Of a DNA stretch of 45,405 nt, positions 5,105-45,405 are shown in pieces (the first letter of the stretch is position 1; each line of letters starts with the position of its first letter). The notes under the pieces are model-generated. The model worked only from the letters and a program-made list of their open reading frames with translations. It made no database searches and was not told the DNA's origin. Made by a program: the position numbers and the translations under genes. The stretch is from Vicugna vicugna. Taxonomy: Eukaryota. Location: contig MU057629.1 of assembly GCA_013265495.1 (NCBI GenBank), positions 16,867 to 62,271 of the forward strand, given 5' to 3'.

Positions 5105-5235
5105 ATTCCTGGCTGTGGGACCCTGGGCAAGTCCCTTTACCTGTCTGATCCTCAGTTTCCTCTTCTGTAAAGCAGGGATGGTAACGATGCCCACCTGACA
5201 GGGCTGCTCTGGGACTCAGTTAGGGAGACCATGTG
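5105..5235 (+). mobile_element. MIR SINE
   Basis: 'ggctgtgggaccctgggcaagtccctttacctgtctgatcctcagtttcctcttctgtaaagcagggatggtaacgatgcccacctgacagggctg' matches the MIR core. Confidence 0.8.
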
Positions 5236-12008: not shown

Positions 12009-12114
12009 GGCCCTCCAGCCACCAACTCCTCAGCAGCTGGTACCTGGGAGATGGCAGCCTTGAAGAAGGCCACTGCCTGGTCCGCGGCACTACTTAGAGG
12101 ATAGGAGTCAAGAG
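12009..12114 (+). other. Probable non-coding 5'UTR exon of the KCNJ12-like locus
   Basis: Acceptor 'tttgctctgtaactttag|G' (AG 12007-12008) and donor 'AAGAG|gtaaca' (GT 12115-12116), 5.5 kb upstream of the coding exon. KCNJ12 has non-coding upstream exons, and the 3' half resembles my recollection of the human 5'UTR (unverified). Confidence 0.6.
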
Positions 12115-12139
12115 GTAACACTGAGGTTACCAATGTGCA

Positions 12140-12340
12140 CCTGTCCATCTAGTCATCCATTCCACCCAACACCTATCTGTCCATTCAGCTAGCCACACAT
12201 CCATCCATTTACCACCATCCATCCAGTCACTAATCCATTCACCCAACCCATCCAATCATTGCCCACCTAACCCATCCATCCCTCTGATCACCCTCCATCC
12301 ATCTGTCCACCCATCTGTCAGCCCTGTTTATCCATCCATG
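12140..12340. repeat. Degenerate (CCAT)n/(CCAC)n simple repeat
   Basis: Runs of ccatccatcc, ccacccatc and ccattca. Confidence 0.85.
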
Positions 12341-12419
12341 TGCTCGACCACTCACCTGCACACGTAACTGTGTTCTCATCCGTCTCCCCACCCTCCCTCT
12401 ATTCAGCAGCTCATTCCCT

Positions 12420-12830
12420 CATCCTTTTGTCTGATCAGTGGGCAGTTCCTGGGTGCTCCTCTGTGCCAGGCCTGCACCAGCTTCTCTGGACCTCTGAGGT
12501 TGGCCATAGCTGGGGACAGGCAAGGTCACCTCTCATACCAGGGCCTCACAGGAGAAGCCAGAGAGTCTACAAGGGCTTCCTGAAGTGGTGGGTTTCAGCT
12601 GATTCCTGACAGATGGGAGAATTTCTAGCATTCCCATTAGCTGTGATTTGGAGGTTGGACCACATGGGGTGAGGGTCACCACAGGAAAACCTGTCAGGGA
12701 CCTGTTGCTGTGTCCAGGTAGCAATGGCCTGGACAGGAGGGTGGCTGTGGGCGAGGAGTGGATGGGCGGCTTTGATACTTCCATGAGTGCAATACACCGG
12801 ACCTGGTGGGGAAACGGATTTGGGGGCTAG
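12420..12830 (-). mobile_element. L2 LINE fragment
   Basis: Purine-rich L2-like text 'tgttgctgtgtccaggtagcaatggcctggacaggagggtggctgtgggcgaggagtggatgg'. Confidence 0.55.
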
Positions 12831-14094
12831 AGGATCGGGAGGAGGCGGGCTTGTGGCTGGGGTGACTGGGGAAGTGACCCTGTGAGGGGGAAGGTGGTAG
12901 GGGAGGAGGGAGGAAGTTTGGAGAGGAGAAGCATCCTGGCCATGCGGTGCTGTGGGTGGCCAGGAGGGAGGGGCTTCCTGAGGCCTGTGAGCAGGGGCCC
13001 AGGGGTGGAGGAACCCGGCTCCCTGAGTGTGCCCCTCGGGGTAGGGAGTGCTCGGAGTGGGGCATTAAGCCCCTTGCCTGCTGACACATGCGCAGGGCCC
13101 GCTTCAGGGGCCAAAGGAAGCTTTTGGGCAGAAAAACTGGTGTTGGTGGTTGGAAACTGGGCCTGTGGGCTTTGCAGGGCTGAGGGTGGGGGCTGCAGAG
13201 CATCTGCCGTCCACATCCCCAGCACATGCGAGGTGCCTCTCCTCAGGCCTCGCACGGGCCTTGCAGGCACAGAAAGCCTGTGCCGTGTTGACCCTGAAGG
13301 TGTGCAGGCCGCCGGCGACCCAGCCATCTGAGCACTAGGGATGTGGGAGAGAGGGCGTTTTTCTGGGAAAGGTGGGCAGGCACAGGAGATGTCTTCTTCT
13401 CCCAGATGGCGAGAACAGACCTGTCGGTCCCCCAGCCCTCCAACTCCCCAGCCAGCCTCAGCCTCCTCGCTGGTCCTGGGTGCCAGCTCCTTCTCCCCTC
13501 CTGCTCCCTGCTCCCCCCTTCCTCCCCCAGACCGGCAGCCCCACCCTTGGAGCTGAGCTGTGGTGCAGCCTCTCACCTCCTGTGAGAATGAGCAAGGGAG
13601 CCCCTCTCAGAGCCTCCATCTCCCCATCTGCCCGGGAAGGGCTGGATTTTACAAGCCCTTGGGCTGGGTCTGATGGGTAGTGCCTGGCTTGGGAAGGACT
13701 GAGGCCATCACAGGATGCAGTGAGTTGGCGTTCTGCGAAGGATTGGTGACGTCCGCTGTGGGCTTGGGCTGGAGAGTGAGGTGGACCTAGGCCACATGCT
13801 GGCTTTCCCTGAGACAAGAGATTTTTAAGGATTCTCCCAGCTGTAGGACTTGATCATGACGTAGTGAGTGCCTTTTGCCTGGACTTCCCAAGCAAGGCCT
13901 GAATGGCCACAGATCAGGGGTGCTGATCAGGGTCTTGCCTCTGATGTCTGAGTGCTGAGATTTATCACCACACAGGATTGGGGGACCTTGAAGGCTGAGT
14001 AATGTCATGCCCACGGTCTGTCCTTGGGGCCTGAACAGGTCGGCGGTTGCTTTCTTTCCTAGCCCCTCCCAGCAGACTAGGAGCTCACTCCTGA

Positions 14095-14245
14095 AAGGCT
14101 GTGTGACCCTGGGCAAGTGACTCAATCTTTCTGAGCTTCAGTTTCCTCATCTGGAAAATGGGAGTAATAGTCAGAATGTTGTTATTGGGATTAAGTGAGT
14201 TAACTGGTGCTCTCAGTCCCTGGCAGGTAGTGAGTGCCTGATGAA
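14095..14245 (+). mobile_element. MIR SINE
   Basis: Near-consensus 'ggctgtgtgaccctgggcaagtgactcaatctttctgagcttcagtttcctcatctggaaaatgggagtaatagt'. Confidence 0.9.
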
Positions 14246-16592
14246 TACTGATTACTCTGCTCATACCTCTGAAGGGGCCCAGCCACCTACGGGGCTCTGC
14301 AGGAAGGGTCACCAGCCCCTCCTCTGTGCCCCTCCCTCGAGCCATCTAGCTGGCGTTTCTTGGCACCTGAGAGTGTGGGCCAAGGCCTGGGCCTGGTGTC
14401 CTCCTGGATGCTGCCAAACCTGAGGCCCAGAGGCTCAGGGACTGCGCACGGGGCGTCCTGCTCCATCCGGAGGCACCTCCTGCTGACTTTTGGGCCCCAG
14501 CCGCAGGTCACATGTTAGCTGCCTCTCTAAAAGCTCGCAGCCAAGGCCCTGCCGGTGCTCCGAGCTTGCTGGATGCGGGAGACTCTGTGCACAGGCGCTG
14601 TGGCCGGCAGGGAAGCGGGCTCCAGGGACGCCAGGCTCCGACAGCTTTGCCGCCTCTCAGGGCTCTCTGGTTCCGGCCCGCTGGGATTGCCACACCCTGC
14701 TCTTTGCTGCTGAAGTCGCCTTCTCTCGCTCAGGTAGTGTACACAGTGCCCCTCCCCTCCCCTTCCAGCAATGCCTGGGACCCCTGTAGGCCAAGCTGGG
14801 AGTCCAACACCGTGGTCTTAACTTGTCTTTACCATTTGTCTCATCCTGGCCCATGAGTTGCTTTGTGACCTGCCTCAGTTTTCCCATCTGTAGAATGGGG
14901 ATCTGGCTCCCTTGCTTGCTAAGGCCTCTTCCAGCAAAACAAATCTAATTTCCTTTCTTATCTGATCCAACTATATGCACCCACCAGGCAGGAGCCAAAC
15001 AGGCCTGCACATCCCTGGGTGAGGGTACTGTCCCACATTCCTTAAATCGAGTTCTTGAAAACCGTAGAGCTATGTCACCTTCTTGCCCTGTGTGTGGAGG
15101 GTCCCTGACATTTGGCAAGTTTGTGGTGCTGGGGTTTCTACTCATGGGTCCTCTTCTCAGCCTTTCTCTGTGGTCTTGTATTCACCAAGCGCCCTGACAT
15201 CTCACACACGCACGTGCACACGCCTGTACAAGCAGCCATCAACTCTGTCTCTGCTCCTTGGCTTCCAGGTGACTTTGGACAAGTGACTTTGCTCTGAGTA
15301 TCAGTTTCCAGCTCTGGGAAATGGGGGAGTGGAGTGAACGTTGATCTTCTCTCTGGTTTTAGGAGGACTGTCAATAGAAGAGGGGATTCCCAGGCCTGTG
15401 TGACACAGTCTGGGTGGGTCCCAGGAGCCCAGCCCAGGCAGAGATGCCAGTGGTCACTGTGATGCCCCCACCTGCCTGGGAGCTGGCAGGCTGGGCTCTC
15501 CTGGCCTTTGATTCTTGCAATTCTGTCCCTTGCAGGCCTCGAGCTGCTCAGAGCCCCACCTGGAGCAGCCATGACCCTCTGGACGTCCCTCAAGGCCTCC
15601 TGGCCACAGAAACACACCCCCTGCCATCTGGTGGCCTCCTGCCAGCATCTGAGCACCCCAGCCCTGGCCACCTTCCCCTGGAGGTCCAGGAATCTAAGGC
15701 TGAGCTGTCTTCCTGGCACAGTCCCCAGGGTTCCCACTGCCGCCGGCTCCCTGCCTCCTGGCCGAGGCAGAAGCAGCATCCAGCATTTCGGCCTCGGGCC
15801 TCAGCTCCTCAGACCCAGGGTGAGGTGGTCAGCTGGAGCAACGGTGGGGGTAGGCTGGCAGCGTGAGGAGATATCCCCGCAGAGCCTGGGGTCCCCACAG
15901 TGGGAGAACTTGAGTTAGACAGAAGTGGCTCTGATTTCAGCTCTCCTGCTTAGAAAGCTGTGTGGCTTTGGGGAAGTCACTTCACCTCTCTGAAACTCCA
16001 TTTGTAGCGTAGAAGTAGCCAGAGTAGCCACCTTCTCGGGCCACTGAGAGGGTGACCCACAAGTGTCTGTGGATGCCCGCTGCCCTGGTGGGGGCCTGGC
16101 CTGCTGTCCTGCGTCTGGACAGGCTGGCTCCCTCAGGTGTGAGTGTCCCGTACCCACCAGACCTGGGGGTCCAGTAGCACCAGTAACTGAGGTGGGTCCT
16201 GGCCGGGTCTGCAGCCTGGCTGATTGTGTGGGCTCCACCCTCACATTCTCCCAGGGTCTGAAGCAGGGGCCACTCACAGGTAGTGCCCTCTCTGAGGCTC
16301 TGGTCCCACATGCCAGGGCTGAGTCCTGGCTGTCGCTTCCCGTGTCCCCCGTCTCCTCGCCCGGCCACCATGGGACGTTCCCTGCAGCTCAGCATCTTCC
16401 AGGCCCTCAAGGGTCCCCAGGGTCTTCTAGCTCTGACCTCGTAGTGCGACTGGGTGGGGGTGGGGGTTGTGGGGTACATCGGTGTGGGGGAGCATGCCCA
16501 GCTCCTCCACGCCCTGCCAGGCCAGCCCCGCTGAGCAGGGCATCAGGGGTGCTGGCCGCCAGCCCTGAGGCGGGATTTGTTTGGACCACCTG

Positions 16593-16594
<2 letters not shown>

Positions 16595-16632
<38 letters not shown>
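16595..16632. repeat. (GT)n microsatellite, about 19 units
   Basis: Uninterrupted GT dinucleotide run. Confidence 0.97.
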
Positions 16633-16635
<3 letters not shown>

Positions 16636-17079
16636 CAGCCGGCCACCCAGGTGCTATGCCGTATGGACTGAAGACCAGGGCTCTTCTGAGTTCCCGCTAC
16701 GAGCTCCTGTTCAGAGCTGAGGAAGGCAGGGGTGGTAGAGGCCCTTGGGCTGAGGTCTGCATCAGTGAGCCCCTGGGTGCTGACTCACGGGCCCCCTCCC
16801 ACCACAGCTGGTGATGGGGCGGCTGGGGCATGGCATGTAGGCACTGAGTGTGGGCACCTGGGGTGGGCCCCTGGGCTGGAGAGCATGAGCATCAAGAGGG
16901 TGGGTGGGGCCTGGCTTGGGGCGTCCGTCAGGCCAGGCTTAGCTCCAGCCCCTGGGGTGAAACAGCAATGAATGAAGAGCAAACTGCTCATTCCTGCTCT
17001 CAGGGAGCTGATGGTGGGATGGTGGGTGCAGCCCCGAGTGGCTCCTTGCTGTTGTTGCTGTTACTGTTGTGAGATCAGA

Positions 17080-17450
17080 GGTCAGTGCTATGGGATCACG
17101 GTGAGGTCCTGAGTGGGGTGCGCGGGGAGGCCCCTGGAGGCATCCCTGTGGCACTGAAGCTGCGGCCGAGAGGAGAGTGTCCAGGTGGGTCTGGGGGTGA
17201 GATCTGAGGGGTCCCCGCAGAGGACGGACTGACTTGTGGCTGCCCCAGGGAGGCCAGTGGGTTGGCCATCACACTGGTCTTGGTGGGTGATGTCGGAACT
17301 GAGGCCGAGAGGGTGGAGGAAGGGGCTGGATATTGAACATATTTTGAAAGCAGAGCCTTGGTGGGAGTAGGGGAACCGAGGATGGACCCAGAGTTCTTGT
17401 CTGGAGCAGCTGGGAGGATGGAGAGTCCGTCTCCCTGGCCGAGGAGGTGG
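17080..17450 (-). mobile_element. L2 LINE fragment
   Basis: 'gggaggccagtggg...ggctggatattgaacatattttgaaagcagagcc...gaggatggacccagagttcttgtctggagcagctgggaggatggag' is typical of antisense L2. Confidence 0.65.
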
Positions 17451-17571
17451 GTGAGGAGCCGGCTTGGTGGGAGGGAAGAGCAGGATCTGGGCTGCAGGTA
17501 AATCAGAGTCAAGGGGTCAGCCGAGGGCCCTGGGTGGGTGTGGGGTGCGGGCGGGTGTGGCTGCCCTGCCA

Positions 17572-17594
17572 GCCCTGTGTCCTCTCTGTTTCAG
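17572..17594 (+). promoter_or_regulatory. Splice acceptor of the KCNJ12 coding exon
   Basis: Polypyrimidine tract 'ccctgtgtcctctctgtttcag|GAGCTGCC'. The exon starts at 17595, 56 nt before the ATG at 17651. Confidence 0.8.
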
Positions 17595-17650
17595 GAGCTG
17601 CCCCACCCGGAGCTGGCCTGGGGGCAGGCCAGGGTACCCCTGCCCCCGGG

Positions 17651-18930
17651 ATGACTGCGGCCGGCCGTGCCAACCCCTACAGCATTGTGTCGTCGGAGGA
17701 GGACGGGCTGCACCTGGTCACCATGTCGGACGCCAATGGCTTTGGCAACGGCAAGGTGCACACACGGCGCCGGTGCCAGAACCGCTTCATCAAGAACAGC
17801 CAGTGAAACATCGAGTTTGCCAACATGGACAAGAAGTCACAGCACTAACTGGCTGACATGTTCACCACCTGCGTGGACATCCGCTGGCGCTACATGCTGC
17901 TCATCTTCTCACTGGCATTCCTTGCCTCCTGGCTGCTGTTCGGCATCATCTTCTGGGTCATTGCTGTGTCCCACGGGGACCTGGAGCCAGTGGAGGGCCG
18001 CGGCCGCATGCCCTGCATGATGCAGGTGCACGGCTTCATGGCGGCCTTCCTGTTCTCCATTGAGACACAGACAACCATCGGCTATGGCCTGCGCTGCATA
18101 ACAGAGGAGTGCCCGCTGGCCGTCTTCATGGTGGTGGCGCAGTCCATCGTGGGCTGCATCATCCACTCCTTCATGATTGGTGCCATCATGGCCAAGATGG
18201 CACAGCCCAAGAAGCGGGCACAGACACTGCAGTTCAGCCACAATGCTGTGGTGGTGCTGCGGAACGGCAAGCTCTGCCTCATGTGGTGCGTGGGCACCCT
18301 GCGCAAGAGCCACATCGTGGAGGCCCACGTGCGGGTGCAGCTCATCAACCCCGCGTCACGGAGGAGGGTGAGTACATCATGCTGGACCAGATCTACATCA
18401 ACGTGGGCTTCGACAAGGGCCTGTGCATCTTCCTGGTGTTGCCCAACACCATCCTGCACGAGATCGACGAGGCCAGCCCGCTGTTCGGCATCAGCCAGCA
18501 GGACCTGGAGACAAACGACTTCGAGATCGTGGTCATCCTGGAGGGCATGGTGGAGGCCACGGCCATGACCACGCAGGCCCGCAGCTCCTACCTGGCCAAT
18601 GAGATCCTGTGGGGCCACCGCTTTGAGCCTGTCCTCTTTGAGGAGAAGAACCAGTACAAGATCGACTACGCACACTTCCACAAGACGTACGAGGTACCGT
18701 CCACGCCCCGCTGCATCGCCAAGGACCTGGTGGAGAACAAGTTCCTGCTGCCCAGTGCCAACTCCTTCTGCTACGAGAATGAGCTGGCCTTCCTGAGCCA
18801 CGAGGAGGAGGATGAGGCGGATGGAGAGCAGGGCAGACACAGCCCCCAGTCCAGGCATGACTTTGACTGGCCCCAGGCTGGTGGCGCCACCCTCGAGCAG
18901 CGGCCCTACAGACGGGAGTCAGAAATCTGA
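17651..18930 (+). pseudogene. KCNJ12: KCNJ12 (Kir2.2 inward-rectifier K+ channel) non-processed pseudogene
   Basis: Translates [22 protein letters not shown]...[11 protein letters not shown]...RRESEI*, colinear with Kir2.2. In-frame stops are TGA 17804-17806 (C53) and TAA 17846-17848 (Y67). A 1-bp deletion after 18348 (K234) shifts the frame. Two single-codon deletions (KK>K, LDRIF>LCIF) and D173H are also present. Confidence 0.96.
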
Positions 18931-21128
18931 GTCATTGAGGGCTAAGGTGCAGCACCGCCCCGCCAGAGAGAGGCCCCTGTCCTGCGAGGGCCCCAGGCCT
19001 GAGCAGAGCCGGCTTGGGCCCCAGCTGCAGACTCAGTAGAGTTGTAGATGTTTTATGTTTCTTCACAGTGGCCTCAGGAGGTTGGTGGGAGAGTGGGCGG
19101 CTAGAGCAGCTTCAGAGGCTGGTGCAGGCAGAGGGGCAGGAAGGTGGCCTCCTGGGGGCCGGGCCACGGAAGCCAGGGGCCTCTGCCTGAGGTGGGAGCT
19201 GCAGCCTGCCCAGAAATGCTAGCCAGCTGCCCAGCCTCTGTGGGCGAAGGCTGGCAGGCTGCAGGGCACCTCATTGGTTTTTAACTTGGGGAGAAATACC
19301 GGTCTTGGCTTTCTCAACCTTAGTTTGAGTAAGACAGTTTACAAAGAAACAAAAAAATTAACATGTGAGTGAAACAAATTTTTATAATTTGGGGTGGGGT
19401 GGGGTGGGTGGGAGGGCGGGCAATTAGAATTCCATTAGTCTGCTCGGATGCAAGCAGCTGGGTGGAGTTACCGGAAGGTCCCCGAGGCTGGACGGCCTCT
19501 CCTGGGGAGGCAGCGGTGTGGCCTGAGGGTGAGCACTGGGCTCACCTCATTATTTCTGCTGTCAGTTGCCCTGGCTTCCATTTGTGATGGCAGAATGAAG
19601 ACCATGTTAATGATTGTAACAAAAGCTCTCCAGCATCATTGGGTGGGGTAAGGACCAGGAAAAATTCAGTTTGAGTTTTCTGAGTTTGAGTTTGTACCTT
19701 AGAGGTGTGTCTCGGGGCCAGTGTGGGACCTGCCTGCTGTGGAGGGTCTGATCTCCCCAACCCACCGGATTCTCCCGTTCTGCTTCCTTCTCCTTTCTGC
19801 CCAGAGGCCTCCACCCATTCCACAGGGGGCGGTGGGACATACAGTGGTGGGTGGCTCCGTGGGAGGGGATGCCAGGTTCCCCAACTCCAGGGAAGTGGAT
19901 CCGCCCACCCACGGCCCCAGCATGAGTTGTGCCTTAGAGACCCTGGTGTGTGGCCTGGCTCTAGCCATGTCTGTTGTTACGGGACTCGCCCATCCTGCCT
20001 GATGCCCCTACTCCACCAGGAAGTCCCTGCCAGGCCCTCTGTCTGCAGAGGCCAGGCCCACCTTGCACTCACCCTCACCAAGAGGGCAGTGCAGGTGAGC
20101 CCAGTTGGGGCCCAGCCAGGCTGAGCCCTGTGGCTGGATGCAGAGGAACAGCCCTCGTGATGGCCTGGGCTTGTCTGTGAGTGACTGGGGATTTGGTGGC
20201 ACACATCCAGATGCCTTAGTCAGGAGGAGGATTGGGGCCCCCTTATTTGTCACCTGCTTTTGGCTCTGCTGCCACAAGAGCCCCCAAGGCAGGCTTATTC
20301 TTAGCAAGGAAGCTGCTGGCAGGGGCTGAGCCCTTCCCAGAACTACCAGGAACATCATCATCTCAAGTGACCATGCCCATCTGGAAGCCAGTAACTAGCA
20401 GCCTGCGCTTCCCCAGGCCACCCCCAGGCTGCTCCAGGACGGCTCATGCAACCAGAAGGTGCAGGGACCCCAGCTCGAAGGGAGACTGCGGCAGAGTGTG
20501 AAGTCACACAGCGAGCCCTGTGTGAGGGATTGCGGGGGCTGCTGCCTCTCGCTCCTCCTACCTCCACTGCAGCTGGAGGCGAGGGCTAGCAGTCCCCTCC
20601 CCTGCCCCGGAGTCCCAGCACCCTGCCCAAGCCTCAGACCCCACCTTGTTTCCGGTCACAGGTCACATCAGGAGGGTCAGCCTGGGGCAGGTGGAGGCAG
20701 CTCTCCCCTCTCAGGACCTGCCCGAGGGCCCTCAGCCCCTTCCTGCCCTGAGCTTTACTCAGCCTTCATCCTGGGGGATGAGTGCTCCCACCAGGAGCCA
20801 CATGGGAGCATTCCCCCCTCCCCCCCTCAAATGCCGCCCTGACCGCCAGGCCAAACCAGGCAGGGGTGAGGCGGCCCGGGTGCTCGGGGCCGGCCTGTGG
20901 GCTTACTGGGCCAGCCCTCCACTCACACTACCCTGGGCAGATCCCAGGGGCCCTGGCTTCCCCGAGGCTTTGGCCATCTTGGGTGGCCTGGTGCACTGCC
21001 TCCCAGGCCTGTGCGGATGGCTCAGGCCGCAGACCCTGCAGGAGAGCTGCCCTGAGCTGCCTTTCGTTTCTCACCAAAGGCAGATGCTGCGTTTTCAAAC
21101 TCCTCTGCCCTCTTTTTCCCTCCCCTGT

Positions 21129-21149
21129 ATTTATTTATTTATTTATTTA
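21129..21149 (+). promoter_or_regulatory. AU-rich element / (ATTT)5 tract
   Basis: Five overlapping ATTTA pentamers in the 3'UTR. Confidence 0.6.
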
Positions 21150-22389
21150 TTGCTTGTGCTAAAGACCAAAATAGTCTCCCTCTTTAGTGCCCTTGAAACG
21201 GGAGGGCGGATGGGCGGAGCTGTGTGTGCAGAGAGTGGGTCACATGGTCCCTAGGCGTGTGCCTGTGTGTGGATTTTGCGGCGTGCCATGTGCCGTGCGC
21301 CGTGCGCCGTGCGTGTGCATGTGCGTGTGTGTACATGATGTGTACCAGCCTGCCCCCGCCCAGGCTGGTATTCCCAGGAAGTTTCTCGAAGCCTGGACCT
21401 GGTGGTGCAGAGGCTGGAGTTGGCCAGGGCACACCCTCTGCCCTGAGACCCTGAGCTGCTTCCCCTGGGAGGGGACACGGGAGCACCAAGGGCGAGGGTT
21501 CCTGTGTGACCTGGTCTCATCTGTGTGCGGGTGAAACATGCCCAGTTTTATCTTTGCCTGTAAGTGCACAAGCGTGTGCATCCATTGTACATGGGAGTGG
21601 TGTGCAGATGTGTGCACACAATGATCTCCACATGTGTGTAAACACAGGCTGATGGTGCCTAGGCATGATACACATGTGTGTGCACACACTCACATGGTTG
21701 TGTGCATATGTACCCAGAGTCTGTCTGTGTGTGCATGTTGTAGGTGTGGGCGTTGGTTTCAATGTTTACCAGGCAGTGAGGCTGGGCACAACACTCAGGG
21801 TGGATACCAGCCGTGGGCCTTGGCTGCACCTAGTGATCCCCCCAGGCCTCTGCCTGAGTGTTTCTGTGTGGGCTGTGTGTACCTGGGTTCAAAGTGATAG
21901 CTACATGTGTATGTGTGTACATGGCTTCCAAAGATGAGCATTTGCACATAGACTCCATGTAGGAAGCCTGTGTGTGTCTGTCACGTGAACACATACGTCT
22001 GTGTGTGGAGCATATGTGCAGCAGCTGTGCCCGGCCCCCTCAGCAGGGGCCGTATGTGTGCATGTGGGAACCTGTGCGGGTCCCGGGGGTGTGTGCGCAC
22101 GCATGTCCGCGGGGTGGTATGTCCGTGTGCAGGCCTGAGCCTGTCTCTCAGCTCAGCGCCCCCTCCCCGCCCCGCCCTCGTCCCCTGCTGGTGCTATGCT
22201 CCCCCTGCCACCCGAGGGTCCTGGCGGGGGCAGGGGGCCTGGTGGGAAGGAGACCACTGCACAGGGGTGTCTGCCTTGTGTGAGGTCAAATAGACGTCAG
22301 ATCTATTTTAAATGGTGAAACTGGAGAATTGTCATGTTATTTTCAATACATAGCAGTATCTAAAGACATAGGCCATGAGACTAGACCAC

Positions 22390-22395
22390 ATTAAA
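22390..22395 (+). terminator. Putative polyadenylation signal ATTAAA
   Basis: Lies at the end of an AT-rich island (22285-22410) and is followed about 30 nt later by GU-rich 'gtgtggagatgtgtgtct'. Confidence 0.6.
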
Positions 22396-23984
22396 TGCAT
22401 TTTGATCTCTTTGAGTGCCACCGTGTGGAGATGTGTGTCTGAAAGTCCCTGACTGGCTCAGCGCCTGCCGGGGAAGGGGTGGGTGGGACACAGTAGCGGC
22501 TCAGGGTGAGGACACAATGCAGCCTCCTCGCAGACCTCTCCCTGTTCTTCCAGGTCTGATGAGGCCCCCACGTGCAGGGCAGCTGTGCGCTGGGTGCAGG
22601 AGACCAGCGCTCTCTCCTGGGACCCATGGTAGTGGGGGAGGCCCCGGCAGGAGGTAGCCCTGGTCCTCACTGCCGTGACTGGAGGGGAAGCCAGGGGTGT
22701 GGGTGGCAGATTGGAGGAATTGAGGCTGGGGATGGTGGGGGGACAGGGGCCGACAAGGGCTGCTGTCAGGGAGAACAGCATGGACGGGCATCCTGGGGAA
22801 AGGAGATGGTCATCTGTCCCAATGAGAGAGGATTCTATCCTTTGCCCCAACTTTCCCGGAGTGGAGAACTCCTCTGCATCAGTGAGGGATCGGGGTCCCT
22901 CGTTCTGGGGGACCTGGGTGACGATTCCAGACGACAGGTGAGAAGCCTGGGCAGTGACAGCTTTTGGTGAGGACGTTGCAGGAGGCTGTGGGGGGTGGGG
23001 GTGGTTGCTGCGGCTTCTAGGTGGATGTTCCCTTGGGTTGGACCTGGAGGGCTTGGCTTGATTGTGGTGTGGGCTGGGGCTCGCCTTCCCTGGCCCTGGA
23101 GCTTTCCCTGGGACCCCAGTACCAGAATCCCAGCCAGCGGTGGCTGCCCATCCCCCAGGGCAGGACCTGCCCCGCTGGATCTTGGTGATGATTTACTGCT
23201 CAAACTTCACAGCCCCAGAGCCCAGGAGTCTCTGGGGGCCCCGCCCCGGTTGTGACCCTGGATCAGACCCCAGGCCACGCACTTGCTCAGTGATCTGACC
23301 TCAGTCTCCCAAGTGGCAGGAAAGGGGTGCTCAGGATCTGGCTCGCAGAGAAGGAGAGAGAACCTTCCCTCAGTGAGTGCTTCGACCGCGTGCTCCACAA
23401 GTCCACCGGGTGGGGACAGCGGGGCCCCGTCTGTGTGTGGCTGTGCCCACCGGCTTGCCCTGTGCTTTCCTGCCTCCCCAAGGAGGAGATGAGTCCAACG
23501 CAGAATCTGCTTTAAAACAGTAGAACGGGTGGGGTAGGGGATTAGGGACCAGTGTTCACTGAGCACATGCTCGCTTCTGTTTGAGGTCTGCTGTTTGGAA
23601 GGAAGTCAGTTCAGGGTCAGTAAGGGCACTGGGGGGAGTTGTCTGAGCTGGGTACAGAGCTGGGCCTCAGGCCCCTAGCCCTGCTGCGGCCTTCAAATTG
23701 AGCCATTTGACCAAGATGCCACCACCCTCCCAGCCAGAATGTCTGCCTCAGTGTATCCTCCCCAAATCCGTCTTCTGGGCTGGGGGCCCCATGACTTGGG
23801 AGGAAATCACGGTGGGCTTCTCCTTCACACCAAGAGGCCAGGAACCAGAGCAGTGGGGCCTCAGAGGTCACTCCCCACACCTCCGCTGCCCACACTCCAC
23901 CCAGGACCAAAGTGGTCTTAAAACCAGAACCGGGTTTTTAACCCCCCTGTCTGACACCCTGCCTGGCTTCCTTCCACACCTTAT

Positions 23985-24275
23985 GAAGATAAAATCCCCA
24001 CCTTTCTCCAGCCTCTGAGATGCTGTCCATCCAGCCCTGCCTTGTCCAGCTCATCCTCTCCCTCCCTCTCCTGCGCCTCTGCTCCAGGCACCCTGCCTCC
24101 CTCTAGTTCCTTGAAAACACGGCATTTTCCTCCCCACCCGGGACCTTTGCATGGGCTGCTCCCTCTGCCCCCCCGCCCCTCCCTGCCCCGGGGAGAGCCC
24201 GTGAGGGCAGGGGTCACAGTGTCCTTTGTTCAATGCTGGGTGCCCACTGCCCAGAGCAGGGTGCAGTAGTGCTCT
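23985..24275 (+). mobile_element. L2 LINE 3' fragment
   Basis: 'ctctgctccaggcaccctgcctccctctagttccttgaaaacacggc...ggacctttgcatgggctgct...ccgtgagggcaggggtcacagtgtcctttgttca'. Confidence 0.7.
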
Positions 24276-35015: not shown

Positions 35016-35642
35016 GGAGAGGAAAGCATTTAGAATTAAAAACAGAAGACCTCATCACCCACACAGAGGCCTTAACAAACTTTGCCCAGAAAGCCTAAAG
35101 ATGGTAGTAAACAGGCTATTGGTCTACCAAACTCAGGAGTTTCTAAGAGGGGTAAAAGTGGTCCTACAGAACTATGTGGCTCTTGATAGTTTCACAGCCT
35201 CTCACAGAGGAACTTATGCTGTAATATGTACCGAATGCTGTTTTATACCTCATCGATGGTCTCCTAACGACTCACCTCATGACACATACGAAAAATCAGA
35301 TCTCCTCTCTGAATGATCCCCTTCCTAGTTTAGGTTTAGGGGAAATATTGGAAAAACGGTTTGATTTAGGGGGCTCTTGGCTCAAGCCTCTGCTGCTGAT
35401 GTTGTGAAGTTGCTGTGAATTGTTTCTCCCTCTTTGCCTCACCTGCCAGAATAACTCTGTGCAAGTGAGGTTCAGACGCTGCTGTGGTGACACCAAAGCT
35501 CATCTCACTCTAGCAGCAAGAGAGTTTCACTCCTGTGACTGGGGAGACCCCAGTGCCCAGCCTTCAAAGAAAACAGAGAAGACTGACCATCAGCCCTGCA
35601 CCCCTCAAGACTGAGGAGTGAAATATCTCAAGAGGGGAGTTT
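35016..35642 (+). mobile_element. Truncated class I ERV internal region: degraded env transmembrane subunit and polypurine tract
   Basis: 35158-35250 reads VVLQNYVALDSFTASHRGTYAVICTECCFIP, matching the gamma-type ISD (LQNR.ALD.L) plus CX6CC with the first Cys changed to Tyr. A hydrophobic stretch follows at about 35380-35450, and PPT 'aagaggggag' at 35630-35639 abuts the LTR. Confidence 0.85.
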
Positions 35643-36161: not shown

Positions 36162-36640
36162 TGTGAACGAGAAATATTGCAAACCATATCGGTAAACAAA
36201 GAATACTGAAACCAGCGAGTCATCAGCGGCTGCTGCCACCCCTTGGTGAAGACAAGCCTGCAGCCCAGCCTCAGTAACCACTCACAATGGTGCACCCTGA
36301 GGGGACTCAGAATGATAAAGGACAGGATACTGGCCCTAGATAGCTAGATGCTTGTCAAAGGAATGAATTCAATGAGCCCAGATGTTTGCTTCCTCCCATG
36401 TATAGAAAAGCACTAACTTCTTTAACTTGAGATGCCCAGTTTTCTTTAGATAACATGTAATCTTTTATTGTTGCAACTACCTGGTCTTTGTTGTAAAGCT
36501 TCTGTATATCCTAGCTCCTCCCCTGCCTCTTCGGAACAGTCCCTCAGAGTGACCTGAGAGGCTGTCATCCCTGCTCAAGTCCTCCCGCCAAATAAAACAT
36601 AACTCTCAACTTTTAGGCTATGTACTTATTTCAGTCAACA
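36162..36640 (+). mobile_element. Solo LTR of a second ERV1-like family with 4-bp TSD GTTC
   Basis: TGTGAAC...GTCAACA termini, AATAAA at 36591-36596, flanked by GTTC at 36158-36161 and 36641-36644. Confidence 0.85.
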
Positions 36641-37130
36641 GTTCCAATAAGTGTGCAGTGTTATCTCATTGCTGTAATAATTTGTAGTTCTCTAATGGGC
36701 TACGATGTTGAGCAAATTTTTGTATACTATCTGTATATCTTCTTTGGCCAGGTGCCTGTTCAGTTGCTTACCTAATTTTAATGGGGTTGTGTCTTTGTTT
36801 ATTTTGGAACAAATCCTTTAATAGATGTGTGTTTGCAAATATTTTTCTCCCAGTGTGTGACTTCTCTTTTGATTTTCTGAATAAGGTCTGTCCTTATTCA
36901 TAAGGAAGCAGAAATTTGGAATTTTATAAAGTCCATGATATTACCTGTTTTTCTTTCTGAATTGCCTTTTTGCATTGTGTGTTAAAACTCAAGGCTCCAT
37001 TATCTACCAGACCAAACCCAAGGTCATGTGGATTTTCTTCTGTGTCTTCTATTATTTTGAGTAATGTGGTGTAAGTTGTAAAATTTGCGTCTACATTCAT
37101 TTCATGCCATTCGGTCTCCAATTAACTGTT
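36641..37130 (-). mobile_element. Old L1 ORF2 fragment, antisense
   Basis: 'gtgttatctcattgctg...gatgttgagca...gtgtttgcaaatatttttctcccagtgtgtgactt'. Confidence 0.8.
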
Positions 37131-37211
37131 CCCTAGCAATTTTGGAGAAGTTGTGGGGCATTTGGCTCCATTGCAGTTTGAATTTCCATGGTTTAATGGA
37201 GTCGGCAGGTC

Positions 37212-37229
37212 TGCCAGCAGGGGGCGCTG
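37212..37229 (+). promoter_or_regulatory. CTCF consensus site
   Basis: TGCCAGCAGGGGGCGCTG matches the core CCASYAGRKGGCRS at every position. Confidence 0.75.
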
Positions 37230-37303
37230 CCCCCCTGGCCTGTGAGCTCCGCCTGCGTGTCCCGTACCGACCGCAGGGGGGGCTGACCGCGTCTCTGATC
37301 CAT

Positions 37304-37314
37304 ACGCATGCGCA
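37304..37314. promoter_or_regulatory. NRF1-like site
   Basis: ACGCATGCGCA versus the NRF1 consensus GCGCATGCGCA, one mismatch. Confidence 0.55.
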
Positions 37315-37929
37315 TCCCCCGGGGGCTTGGCTCTGCGCGCCGCCGAAGGGAGTTTGTCTCCTCATTTGCCGCGCGGGCGGCAGCTTCAGGACCACACGGG
37401 GCAGTGTCCACACTGACTGGAGCTGGGTTCTCCCAAGACCGGCCCGGGGGGCGCCGCCGGGGGAACGTGTGAGGAGACGTGAGGAGACGCTGCCTGCGGG
37501 GTGGCTGCGGGGTCGGGGTGGGGGTCCGCCTTCAGGGGGCCCAGGAGGGTCTTGGTGTGGAAAAGCGGTTTTTTTCAGTCAGTCCAGCTCTCCCAGCGCA
37601 GCGCGGCTTGCGGTGCGGACCGCCCTCCCCCCTGGCGTGTCTGAGCCCCGCTGTCACACCTTGGCCGACCCGGCCGGGGCGGGTTCGTGTCCTGTCCCGC
37701 TGCCCCGCGCCTGTGTCTGTGCCGATTCCACAGTTTCGGCCGCTGTAGCTTCTGCTTAGAGCGAAGCTGGGGAGGGAGGTGCCTCCAGCCTGCTCTCCTG
37801 TCGCAGGGCCGCTTTGGCTGTTCGGGGCCCTTCGTGGTTCCACGCAGACAGCAGGGTGAGTTCTCTGGCTGTGAAAAGTGCCCGTGGGGTTTTGGTGGGG
37901 GTGCATCCCTGTGCGCGGGGCTTTGGGTA

Positions 37930-40243
37930 CAAGGGACAGTTCTGCATCCATGGGCACAGGATACCCTTGCATTTATGAGTCGTCTTCAATTTCTTTGGGA
38001 ATGTCTTAAGGTTTTCAGTGTGCAGGGCTTCCACGTCTGGTTAAATTCATTCATAAGTATTTTGCTCTGTTTGATGCAATTGTAAATAGGACTGTTTTCT
38101 TATTCCTTCTGATGGTTCATTGTCAGTGTTTAGAAATGCAGTTGATTTATGCGTATTGATTTTTTAGCTTTACTGAATTCGCTTATTATTTCTAATCATT
38201 TTTTGGTGGAATGATGTGGAAATTTGGAATTCAAAAATAGCACTGTGTCAACCACATCCAGGTCATGCACAACGTGGAGACAGTGGCTCCTAATGTGACC
38301 TTCCGCTGTGTCTGTAAATTACACGTGGACCCCTACAGGGGCAATGAGGCTCACTCTGTGTGTGAACTGGATCTGGGGGGGCCTGGCCTGTGAGGAAGTG
38401 TGATGTGGGCTCTGCCTTTCTGGTCTTGGCATGGCGTTTTGAAAGGTAATTTACTTTTCGGGAATTGCAAACACACAGAAAACTTGCAGTAGCAGACAAA
38501 GTGCTGTCTGTCTCTACACCCAGATTCCCTGCTGTCTTTGCTCTACCCCGTTTACCACTTCACACAAAATACTCCAGCACGTTTTTTTACCCAAACAAGC
38601 GACCTCTCCCAGGGAGTCCGCACACAGCCTCCAAATGAGAAGATGATTGCAGTTTCCACATTGTAATCCAGTCCACAGGCCCGCTGCAGATTTCACCATC
38701 CGCCCCAGCTCTAGGGAAACGTCTTTTCACATTTTGATCCAGTTTTCTTTTTCTGGAACCACTACTGATACTTCCTATCATTTCACAAACTTGATTTAAT
38801 TTAAAGCACACAGGAGAGCCTGATCTGGGTGGCCTTTTCTGTGTGGCTTCTTTTCCTTAGGCTTTTTCAGTTTTCATCTCTGTTGTACCAGGCATAAGTA
38901 CTTCATTATTTTTTTTCATTGTGACATAGCATTTGCAATTTGAACTGTTTTAAGTACACGTTAAGTTGTATGACCTTAACTACAATCACAGTGTTGTGCA
39001 AATAGCCTCTCCATCTCCAATCTCTAGAACTTCTCAGTTTTCACCAGTGACTAATTCCCTCAGCCCTTAGCAACCACATTCTGCGCTCCGTCTTTGAATG
39101 TGACTTCTCTGGATACCTCACAGAAGTGGAAACATACCATCTTTGTCCTTTTGTGGCAGAGTTATTTCACTTATCATAATGGCCTCAAGGTTCATATATG
39201 CTGCAGCAGGTGTCAGAATTTCCTTAGTTTTTAAGGTGGAATTCCACTCCTTTGTGTTTACACATTTGGTTTATCCCTCTGTCCACTGGGGGGCACTTGG
39301 GTCGCTCCCACCTTCTGCTGCTGTGACTGTGCTGCTGTGAATGGGGGTGTTCCCATGTCTGTTCCAGGCCCTGCTTTCAGTCTTCTGGGTGCACACCCCG
39401 ATGTGGAATTGGTGGCTCGCATGTTAATGCTGTGTTGAAGTTTTTGAGGGGCTACCATCCTGGTTCCCACAGAGGCTGCATTATTTCTCTTCATTTATGG
39501 CAGAATCGTATGGTGGTTTATGAATCAACCCCACTTTGTTTATCCATTTACCCACTGGTGGACGCTGCATTGTTTCTACCTTCTGGCTGTTGTGAACAGT
39601 GCTGCTGTCAATAGATGTGAACACCTGCTTCAGTTCTTTGGGGTTTACATCTAGGAGTGTAGTTCTTGAGACATACGGTAACTTTCTATTCATACGGTTA
39701 ACACAGATTGCACCCTTTTCCGTTTTCACAAGTAATGCTTAAAGGTTCCAGTTTCTCTGCATTGTTGCCAACATTTGTTACCTTTAATTTTCTTGACTAT
39801 AACCATTTGAGAGTGTGTGAAGGAGTTATTGCATTGTGGTTTTAATTTGCATTTCCATCCTATCTTTTCAGCTGCTCATGGACCATTTGTCTTGTGTGGA
39901 GAAGGGTCTGTTTAAGTCCTTTGTCCGTATTTAAAATTGGGGTGTTTGTCTTTGGGTGTGTCTTTGTTGAGGAGGTGTAACATTTCTTGATACACACTGG
40001 ATAAAGACTCATCAGATATATAACATGGAAATATTTTCTTACAGTGTGTGGGCTGCCTTTTCACTTTCTGGATTGTGTATTTTGATGCAGAAAAGTTTTT
40101 AATTTTGAGGAAATCCAAACTTTTTCCCCCTTTCATTACTTGTGCTTTGATCTGAGAAATCATTTCTTGTGTCAGATCTAGGAAATCATTGTTAAATCCA
40201 AGGTTATAAAGATTCATCTGCATGTTTTACTGGAGAGTTTACA
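37930..40243 (-). mobile_element. Mosaic of old antisense L1 fragments (with a short unassigned segment at about 38210-38430)
   Basis: Minus-strand ORF remnants read L1 ORF2-like (39912-40223 LDFLKIKNFSASKYTIQKVKRQP); several L1MB/MC-type 3' ends. Confidence 0.75.
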
Positions 40244-41149: not shown

Positions 41150-41911
41150 TTTTTTGTATATATCTATTCTTATTGAAGTATAGTCAGTTTACAATGTCAT
41201 GTCAATTTCTGGTGTACAGCTAATGCTTCAGTCATACATGAACATATATATATATATTCATTTTCATATTCTTTTTCACCGTAAGTTACTACAAAATATT
41301 GAATATAGTTCCCTGTGCTCTACAGTGTAAACTTGCTGTTTATGTTATATATAGTAGTTGAGTATCTGCAAATCTCGAACTCCTAGTTTATCCCTTCCCA
41401 CCCCCTTTCCCCCATGGTAACCATAAGTTTGTTTTCTATGTCTGTGAGTCTGTTTATGTTGTATAAATAAGTTCATTTATCTTTTTTTTCAGATTCCACA
41501 TATAAGTGATGATATATGGTATTTTTCCTTCTCTTTCTGGCTTTCTTCACTTAGAATGACAATCTCCAGGTCCATCCATGTTGCTGCAAATGGCATTATT
41601 TTATTTTTTATGGCTGAGCAGTATTCAATTGTATAAATATACCACACTCCAGGTCCATCCATGTTGCTGTAAATGGCATTATTTTATTTTTTATGGCTGA
41701 GCAGTATTCAATTGTATAAATATACCACAACTTCTTTATCCAGCCATCTGTCGATGGACACTTCGGTTGCTTCCATGTCTTGGCTATTGTAAATAGTGCT
41801 GCTATGAACATTGGGGTGCATGTATCTTTTTGAATTAAGGGCCCCTCTGGATATATGCCCAGGAGTGAGATTGCTGGATCAGATGGTAAGTCTGTTTTCA
41901 GTCTTTTGAGG
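41150..41911 (-). mobile_element. Young 5'-truncated L1 (cetartiodactyl/camelid-type 3'UTR) with 12-bp TSD
   Basis: ORF 41608-42015(-) contains a well-preserved ORF2 C-terminus DPAISLLGIYP...DTCTPMFIAALFTIAKTWKQPKCPSTDGWIKKLWYIYT. TSD AATTGGAGGCAT at 41138-41149 and 41912-41923; T-tract from 41150. Confidence 0.9.
41564..41729. repeat. 83-bp tandem duplication inside the young L1
   Basis: Copies at 41564-41646 and 41647-41729 differ at one base (gctgca vs gctgta). Confidence 0.95.
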
Positions 41912-42082
41912 AATTGGAGGCATGATTGATGCATCTCAAGATGTGAGACTTGTTTAGCCTTGGAAAATTCTGCCCAGCTATATTCCAGGAGGCTGTATGT
42001 GTGTTCCATCAGCAATGAAGGAGAGTTGCTGTGTTCCCTGTTCTCTAGTAATGAGCATTGTCGCCTTGTGGGGAGGTTAGCA

Positions 42083-45000
42083 GTTCTAATAGGTGTGTAG
42101 TGCTGTCCGCTTGCTTTAATTTGTAGTTCCCTAATAGTATATGATGTTGATCATATTTTTGTCCACTTACTTATTTTCTGTATGTCTTATTTGCCAGGTG
42201 TCTATCCAGATCTTTACCCATTTTAAATAGGGTTGCTGGTTTTATAGTTCTTTGTGTAATTTGAGTACATATTCTTTAGCAGATATGTGTTTTGCCAGTA
42301 TTTTTCTCCCAGTTTGTTGCTTGTCTTTTGGTTTTCTGAATAATGTATTTTACCAAGTAGAAAATTTTAATTGGATGAAGTACACATTATTAGTTTTTTT
42401 CCTTTTGTGTGTTGGCTTTTTGTGTTGTTGAAAGTCAAAGATCATCATCTACATGACCAAACCCATGGTCATGTAGATTTTCCTTTATATTTTCTTCTAT
42501 AATTTTTACAGTTTTGCATTTAAAATTTGTCTATGGACAACTTTGAGTGACTTTTGGTGACTTCTGTAAAGCTGTGTTTACCTTCATTGCATATGGTTTC
42601 TAATTGTTCTATAACCATTTTTTGAGAAGTCATGGGATATTGGCCTCCATCCATTTGAATTTCCAAAGCTGAGTGCATTCAGCAGGACTGCCAGCAGGAT
42701 TCAGCAGCCTCCGCTGGACTGAGTGGGTGCAGCTGCATTCCCCTGTTTGCCAGCAGAGGGTGACTATCCACCTCTCTGACCAGGGCAGTGCCTGCCTGTT
42801 CTGCCCACAGCCTTGGCTCCCTGCTCAGCCAACAGGAGCCTGGTCTCCTCCGGACCTGCCAGGGATTTGGCTCCGGGAAAACGTGGGGCTTGTATCCACA
42901 CTGAGAGGAGCTCCGTGTCTTCAGAACCAGCTGGGAGATGCTGCCAGAGGAGGAAGAGGTGAGGAAAAGTGAGGAGAAGCTTCCCATGCGTGTCTGGATG
43001 CTGGAGTGTCCGTCTTCAGAGGGCCCAACACAGGAAGGGCTTGAAGTGGGAAATTGTTGGTTGTAGTTTTGTGGAGGCGGGGCAGATGGTGTTCAGCGTC
43101 CTTCCTTGGCTTGTGATGTCCAGTTGTCCGGACATCATTGATTGAGGGGACTGTCCTTTCCCTGAGGTGTGCCATCAGTTGTCATCAGTTAACTGACCAC
43201 ATATTTTTGGATGTGCTCCCGGGCTCTCTCTTCTATTCCTCTAGCCTCTTACTGTGCCATTTCTACACTGGTTACGGTAGCTTCATAATGTGGTTTGAAG
43301 TCAGTGAGTTTCCTGCAGCCGCTGTTCTCCTTTGCCTGGATCCTTTGGCTGTTTGGGGTCCTTTGTGGTTCCTTACAAATGTTAGGATGGTTTGTTCTGT
43401 CTCTGTGGAAAAGGCCGTTGGTATTTTGGTAGCAATTGCATTCAGTGTGTCTATTGTTTTGGGTGGAATGGACATTTCAGCTCTAGTAATTCTTTACATT
43501 CATGGGGACAGGATACCTTTCCATTTTTTTGGTCTTCAATGTCTTCATCAATGTCTTACCATCTTCAGTGTGCAGAAGATTTACCGTCTTTCACATCTTT
43601 GGTTAAATTTATTCCTAGATATTTTGTTCTTTTGTTGTTATTGAAAATGGGATTGTTTTCTGAATTTCTTTCTCTGATGGTTCATTATTATTGTCTAGGA
43701 ACACAAGTGATTTTTGTGTATTGATTTTGCATCCTGCAGCTTTACTGAATTCATTTATTAGTTCCAACAGTTTGTGTGTGTGTGTGTGTGCGCGCGCGCA
43801 CGTGTGTGTGATTTGATGTGGAAACTGGAATTAGAAATGGCCCTGTTTCAACTACATCCAGGTCATCCACAGCACCCAAGACACAGTGGCTGCTGATACC
43901 ATTTTCCCAAAGTGCCCTTCAAAAATGTGTGGACCCTGCAAGGGTGAGGAGCATCACCACTGGGTGAGCATGGGCTGGATAGGACTTGGCCTCTATGACC
44001 AAGTTTGATGTCTTTTCTACTTTTCTGTCCTATTATTGACATGGTTGCTTAGAAAAGCATTTTTTCCCCAAGAATTTCAAATGTATGGAAGAATTTCAGT
44101 AGCAGTACACAGTACTCACATTTGCCACCTCACACAAAATACTCCAGTGTGTTTTACCCCAAAGAGGGACAGTCTACCAGGGAACCAGCACATAGCCCCC
44201 AAATGAGGATAAATTTAATTTCTTATAAAAATCCAACCCAACTTTCACCAGCTAACCCAAGTCTAGGGTTATATTTTTTTTCCCATTCTGATCCAGGTTT
44301 TTTTCTGGAAACCTGACTGCAGCTTTCCTTCATTTTCACAATCCTGAGGGATTTAAAGCACAAGAGGGGTATGTGATCTGGGTGGCCTTTCCTGCATGGC
44401 TCCTCTCACTTGGGATGTTGTCAGTGTTCATCTGTGTTATAACAGGTATCAGGACTTCATTTTTTTTCATGGTGATTAAAAACACAGAACACCTCTTAAA
44501 CTGTTTTCTGTGTACATTCTGTGGCATTAACTACATCCACACTGTTATAAAGACACCCTCACCATCCAGCTCCTGAACTGTTTCATCTTCCCAAAGTGAA
44601 ACTGTATCCATGAAACCCTGACTCTTCTCAGCTCCTCACAACCCCATTCCTTCTGTCTCTGAACTTGACTCATCTGGATCTGTATGTAAGTGGATTATGG
44701 AACTTGTCCTTCTGTGACTGACTGACTCCACTTAGCATAGTGACTGCAAGGTTCATCCAGTGTAGCATGTGTCAGAATCCCCTGAGTTTTCAAGGCTGAA
44801 TGACATTCCCTTGTGTACATACCACATTCTGTTTATTTATCCCTCAAAAGGCACTTGGGCTGCTTCCACATCTGTGACTGTTAATGGGGCCGCAGTGACT
44901 ATGAGTGTACAAATATCTGTTCCAGTCCCCACTTTCCAATATTTTGAGTAAATACCCTGAAGTGGAGTTGAAGGCTCATGTGTTAACTCTACATTTCATG

Positions 45001-45405
45001 TTTTGAGGAGCTTCCATGTTGTTCTCCACACTGGCTGCACTATTTTACTTCATTATTTATATGGCAGAATAACATGGCAGTTCATGGATCTACTGCATTG
45101 TGTTTATTCATCTGTTGATGGGCATTTTAATTGTTTCTATCTTTGGCTATTGCGAACAGTGCTGCTATGAGTACTCATGTACGAGATTTTGTTAGAACAC
45201 CTGCTGTCAATTACTGAGTGTCTGTCACTAGGAGTGGAGTTGTTGAGCCATGTCATACTGTACATTTATCTTTTTGAGGCAATGTCAAAGTATTGTACCC
45301 ACAGGCTGCACCATCTTATGTTTCCACAAACAATGTTTAAAAGTTCCATTTGCTCTATACTGTTGGCAGTATTTGTTATTTTTAGTTCTTCTTGACTATA
45401 ACAGT
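42083..45405. repeat. Second, diverged copy of the unit at 36641-39805 (L1 mosaic plus promoter-like core)
   Basis: Same order of blocks and shared junction sequences at an offset of about 5.4-5.6 kb (see findings). Confidence 0.85.
43773..43810. repeat. (TG)n(CG)n alternating purine-pyrimidine tract
   Basis: tgtgtgtgtgtgtgtgtgcgcgcgcgcacgtgtgtgtg. Confidence 0.9.

Follow-up and report, generated by a model that had tools for sequence, protein, structure and literature searches.

A disabled, intron-retaining copy of KCNJ12 in camelid DNA

The stretch of DNA analyzed here (the window) is 45,405 nucleotides long and contains a disabled Kir2.2 (KCNJ12) coding sequence at 17651 to 18930. Like all gene features described below, it lies on the forward strand. 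The Kir2.2 homology of this interval is split into two translated pieces, in which 389 of 425 aligned residues are identical to an intact 428-residue alpaca protein (P0156), and Pfam Kir domains are found on its homologues. Lesions were called against P0156 and are given as they stand in the assembly sequence. Premature stop codons occur at C53 (TGA, 17804 to 17806) and Y67 (TAA, 17846 to 17848), and a 1-nt deletion at R236, where two bases of the codon are left (18353 to 18354), shifts the reading frame. These are the two stops and the frameshift for which a preliminary description of this DNA had considered the exon disabled. In addition, we found 34 missense changes and two alignment gaps of one codon each, namely the in-frame loss of a lysine codon (K48/K49, at 17791 to 17792) and of D260 (at 18423 to 18424). 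The KCNJ12 mRNA of the Bactrian camel (PMC10277799, supplement file 4), which was compared by eye over the first 400 of its 1637 letters, has an open frame in that part, with a Cys codon and a Tyr codon at the positions of the two stops and with both Lys codons kept.

The normal ATG opens a frame of 51 amino acids that is ended by the TGA at C53 and contains no membrane helix. Judged from its reading frame, the disabled copy would be unable to make a channel, as translation from the normal ATG would end after 51 residues. An exact protein look-up of frames derived from the window found none of seven, which is expected of an unannotated pseudogene, yet gives no support for one. When proteins of similar length were searched with the C-terminal piece, six matches were obtained among 416 candidates, the best of them 89% identical and none derived from a pseudogene.

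The coding exon is embedded in recognizable gene structure. Its acceptor AG lies at 17593 to 17594, and by eye the Bactrian mRNA splices into the same base; the 5' UTR part of this last exon (17595 to 17650) is identical to that mRNA at 53 of 56 nucleotides, again by eye. An upstream exon of the long (RefSeq X1-type) KCNJ12 isoform lies at 15536 to 15819 with AG/GT boundaries and is frameshifted near 15684. It corresponds to the N-terminal extension that is predicted for long KCNJ12 isoforms in many mammals: tblastn with such extensions from primates, carnivores, rodents, and others matched 15571 to 15821 in two frames, with E values down to 1e-28. Its donor is the GT at 15820, and the sequence from 15820 to 17594 reads as a retained intron with GT and AG ends. 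Further upstream, 12009 to 12114 is a candidate non-coding exon, preceded by a pyrimidine-rich tract and AG and followed by a weak GT donor at 12115; no convincing match to it was found among 55 isoform N-terminal extensions. The intron DNA also holds a MIR-like SINE remnant at 14085 to 14200 (strand unassigned), which is 82% identical over 61 nt to positions 5111 to 5171. The names MIR and L2 for the intron repeats are assumed from likeness to their consensus sequences.

Downstream of the coding sequence, a probable 3' UTR extends from 18931 to 22410. Its extent is set by the signal ATTAAA at 22390 to 22395, the only AATAAA or ATTAAA within 18931 to 24000. Runs of eight or more A occur in the window only at 1238 and 28924, and hence the copy has no polyA tail. 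Since the intron, acceptor, and upstream exon are kept and no A-run follows the signal, the copy is a genomic one rather than a retrocopy, as the preliminary description had held; accordingly, a processed pseudogene was rejected. The window was searched with a 16-nt motif that closes Bactrian exon 1; two matches were obtained at three mismatches, and 11 of 100 shuffled controls also reached two matches. This is chance level, which indicates that exon 1 is not in the window. In the Bactrian camel, exon 1 would lie about 30 kb upstream, as judged from the annotated gene span.

Near 31 kb, downstream of the copy, the GC content steps down from about 0.6 to about 0.43, which may mark a duplication edge. 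The DNA beyond this step is presumably L1- and LTR-like. No neighboring gene was found when 147 of 155 downstream frames of at least 62 amino acids were searched against Pfam, the four weak matches all being below the cut-off, and Rfam gave no match on 19000 to 45405. An old tandem duplication is present at 36634 to 39803 and 42076 to 45402 (74% identical over 2971 aligned nt, with a period of about 5.5 kb). Its first unit contains a CpG island at 37001 to 38000, with a CpG o/e of up to 0.82, and the second unit has decayed. The repeat has the appearance of a gene's promoter or first exon that was duplicated, and it has no Pfam or Rfam match. Before it, at about 35050 to 35400, lies what we take, from motif likeness, to be a degenerate retroviral env-like remnant with stops, followed by LTR-like DNA to about 36640; the one frame of the remnant that was scanned had no Pfam match. 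Between the two tandem units, 41160 to 41850 is presumably the 3' end of a young-looking L1 of camelid type, and it carries an internal 83-nt tandem duplication with 99% identity.

The disabled copy is camelid. Among 26 proteins compared, alpaca P0156 is the nearest (389/425); the best of the other 25 reached 380/425, and a partial whale protein reached 310/344. All seven alpaca-typical residues, defined as those that set alpaca apart from 9 or more of 11 other mammals, are shared by the copy. In a quick tree of 37 rows, the copy and alpaca pair with an SH-aLRT support of 97, with branch lengths of 0.10 and 0, respectively. Orthology with KCNJ18 (Kir2.6) was rejected on the grounds of this pairing with alpaca Kir2.2, the broken frame, and the lack of any derived change shared with human KCNJ18. 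I47 (V47I) is common to the copy and alpaca and absent from the Bactrian camel. This hints weakly at a New World camelid, as it is a CpG site and about 19% of such positions have changed.

Purifying selection has been lost in this copy, and its changes look neutral and CpG-driven. Over residues 40 to 380 it differs from alpaca at 31 positions, compared with 2 to 6 in 14 intact placental proteins and 33 in tortoise. Of the 36 residue changes (34 missense and two stops), 27 fall at the 346 of 428 columns that do not vary among alpaca and 14 other amniote proteins, which does not differ from random placement (p = 0.40). The missense changes have a mean BLOSUM62 score of -0.21, and a neutral simulation gave -0.53 (SD 0.28; P = 0.14), with 0.8 stops expected where two are seen. 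A CpG transition is possible in 20 of the 36 changes, which is an upper count as the codons were inferred from residues. Over the 322 nt that can be compared with the Bactrian mRNA, 15 substitutions, 12 of them at CpG, and one codon gap were counted by eye; within 88 codons, eight of these are nonsynonymous (both stops included) and four are synonymous, and three more lie in the UTR.

Several observations indicate that KCNJ12 is intact in other camelids. Alpaca P0156 (XP_072796117.1) is a full-length 428-aa Kir2.2 on a 63.3-Mb sequence, but as it is named "KCNJ12-like", it could itself be a secondary live copy. Bactrian KCNJ12 (GeneID 105081329) is annotated as protein coding with a span of 31.6 kb, and it was expressed in three mammary samples, with normalized values of 423, 408, and 12, and had values of 0 in the other three. 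In the supplement giving this annotation and expression, KCNJ12 is paired with a gene under the KEGG code "cdk", which we take to be the dromedary. A published Bactrian primer carries the codon for Ile268, which is changed in the disabled copy. The Bactrian KCNJ12 qPCR primers match the copy at 18444 to 18603 with one and zero mismatches and the same 160-bp span, and they might also amplify a similar copy in that species, if one exists there. No Camelus protein was seen among the members listed of two large non-primate clusters (15 of each, from 40 of 142 and 40 of 163), and KCNJ12, KCNJ18, MAP2K3, and TNFRSF13B had no matches in 10 supplementary files on VicPac3.1. Compared with this parent gene in alpaca and Bactrian camel, the copy is alike in its single coding exon, acceptor, 5' UTR, upstream isoform exon, and camelid-typical residues, with 91.5% identity; only the copy has the two stops, the frameshift, the two codon deletions, and the 34 missense changes.

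The age of the decay bears on whether the copy is a duplicate or the remains of the only gene. At nonsynonymous non-CpG sites, the copy has diverged by 1.9% (1.0 to 2.8%), and the rate applied was 7e-9 per 5-year generation (PMC7331169). This would place the decay at about 13 My (7 to 20 My), an estimate for which 17 substitutions were inferred and the rate was borrowed. A faster rate of 2.2e-9 per year gives 8.5 My, with a lower bound of about 4.7 My. Lama and Vicugna (Lamini) split 2 to 3 My ago, and dromedary and Bactrian camel (Camelini) split 4 to 5 My ago (PMC6946651). Decay over some 7 to 20 My would exceed these splits, which makes loss of the only copy unlikely; a species-specific loss would leave too little time, and therefore dead and live copies most likely coexist. 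An intact KCNJ12 would thus be expected in this same genome. Overall, we assign a probability of about 90% to the reading that the copy is a genuine camelid pseudogene of KCNJ12, unprocessed and otherwise ordinary. The preliminary description had offered two possibilities. The first, a decayed lineage-specific duplicate, is supported, here as a camelid one, by the pairing with alpaca and by neutral decay that appears older than the splits within the camelid tribes. The second, loss of the only Kir2.2, is made unlikely by the full-length alpaca protein, the expressed Bactrian gene with its intact codons, and the decay age.

Three other explanations have to be weighed against a decayed duplicate, and the least probable of them, which we hardly credit, is that the lesions are an assembly or consensus artefact of an intact KCNJ12. 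Thirty-six residue changes, about half of them explicable by CpG transitions, together with codon-sized deletions, do not resemble a spectrum of errors, and independent genome-sized runs contain about 70% of the 31-mers of the copy. For this comparison, 544 31-mers were sampled from 17300 to 22450, two thirds of which is 3' UTR. Fourteen of 24 listed runs, which are genome-sized and represent one organism and six studies, contain 0.69 to 0.77 of them, and with the best-holding study left out, 10 runs from five studies contain 0.69 to 0.72. An intact-type copy alone, at 3.9 to 4.7% divergence, would be expected to hold about 0.2 to 0.3, assuming that the UTR diverges alike. The shortfall from 1.0 could be due to polymorphism, a sister species, or contig breaks at shared words. 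Six rows were RNA or RNA-like runs with shares of 0.05 to 0.21, which fit transcripts of an intact gene or partial transcripts of the pseudogene alike. The copy as the only KCNJ12 of its source species, that is, a unitary pseudogene with Kir2.2 lost, has very little probability left, even though its flanks are kept as in a native locus, over at least 17.6 kb on the upstream side and, with high GC, over about 9 kb downstream. Kir2.2 loss would also be less drastic than the preliminary description implied, as KCNJ12 knockout mice are described as viable and fertile (PMC6390110). Against a unitary pseudogene stand the intact alpaca protein, the open frame and expression in the Bactrian camel, and the "cdk" gene paired with KCNJ12; every living camelid is within 2 to 5 My of one of these species, a span shorter than the 7 to 20 My of decay.

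It is similarly improbable that the copy is transcribed and retains some function as a non-coding RNA or through a subunit reinitiated at M71 that could dampen Kir2 channels. Such a subunit would consist of TM1, pore, and TM2 with a frameshifted tail. The frame from 17849 to 18568 is open for 239 codons with the GYG filter kept, and nonsense-mediated decay is not expected for stops in the last exon. However, this frame is absent from the protein collection, and the membrane and pore residues 71 to 190 show no extra constraint (8 changes in 120 residues versus 28 in 305 elsewhere, p = 0.45), with D173H and R186Q falling at residues invariant in 11 mammals. In favor of a dampening subunit, dominant-negative variants of Kir2.2 and Kir2.6 are described in PMC6390110.

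For the decayed duplicate, the following course of events is proposed. A genomic block with at least the 3' half of KCNJ12 would have been duplicated in the camelid lineage, probably 7 to 20 My ago, and would have comprised the upstream exon, introns, coding exon, and 3' UTR, presumably as a segmental duplication. The extra copy was probably redundant from about the start and would have decayed neutrally, mostly by CpG deamination, with a working KCNJ12 likely persisting elsewhere. We found this copy described in none of the titles and abstracts of open-licence papers on KCNJ12 in alpaca, mustelids, or camels, or on KCNJ12 pseudogenes and segmental duplication; the locus may already carry a pseudogene annotation. 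Intron-retaining decayed copies are also seen in repeat- and pseudogene-rich blocks of alpaca, where NEK10-like and FMN2-like copies are described (PMC13751797); these form multi-copy arrays.

Extra copies of KCNJ12 occur in other mammals. In humans, KCNJ12, KCNJ17, and KCNJ18 lie in segmental duplications, and three paralogues are reported in T2T-CHM13 (10.1101/2021.07.12.452063). KCNJ18 has an open frame with 96 to 99% identity and is described as not found in cat or mouse (PMC4163655). KCNJ18 (Kir2.6) and KCNJ17 at 17p11.2 are, like the camelid copy, genomic duplicates of the same locus, but of independent origin, as the copy in the window pairs with alpaca, and the frame of KCNJ18 is open whereas the camelid copy is dead. 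Mustelid KCNJ12-like or KCNJ18-like models (otter P0018 and P0020, river otter P0030, and ferret P0033) are likewise extra, strongly diverged Kir2.2 copies, with 41 to 81 differences from intact mustelid proteins. They are known from database annotations alone and stand apart from the copy in the tree; each has zero to five changes in common with it, which are CpG-type parallel changes. Both otter models lie on one 89-Mb chromosome, and their accessions are nearly adjacent. Three gorilla models of KCNJ12 type (P0135, P0136, and P0140) are found on one 195-Mb chromosome, one with 31 differences from gorilla KCNJ12. A colobine monkey model (P0071) differs from human KCNJ12 at 15 positions and has two gaps of 20 residues, possibly because the gene prediction steps over lesions in another decayed copy. 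Copy number variation of KCNJ12 has been reported in cattle, as cited in PMC10808162. In JGI metagenomes, six Kir loci matched the window, only within the coding exon and at 70 to 82%.

On the quick tree, the 10 rows labeled as extra need five changes, at least two of which are forced by strongly supported branches. Tentatively, and at somewhat less than even odds, KCNJ12 may be a recurrent duplication hotspot in mammals, with copies that arose independently in great apes, in camelids, and, probably more than once, in mustelids; almost all of them would have decayed, human KCNJ18 being a rare survivor. The data are extra copies on separate branches of the tree; they do not imply a rate above background or common breakpoints. 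If the hotspot is true, the copies would be explained by one common cause, for example a fragile region of breakpoints adjoining KCNJ12.

A single dead duplicate matters little in itself. It is a mapping hazard, as about 95% identity to KCNJ12 can yield false variants and primer cross-talk in camelids. If the wider pattern is true, the birth and death of KCNJ12 copies would set human KCNJ18 in a general mammalian context, and the decayed copies would provide natural controls for asking why Kir2.6 survived.
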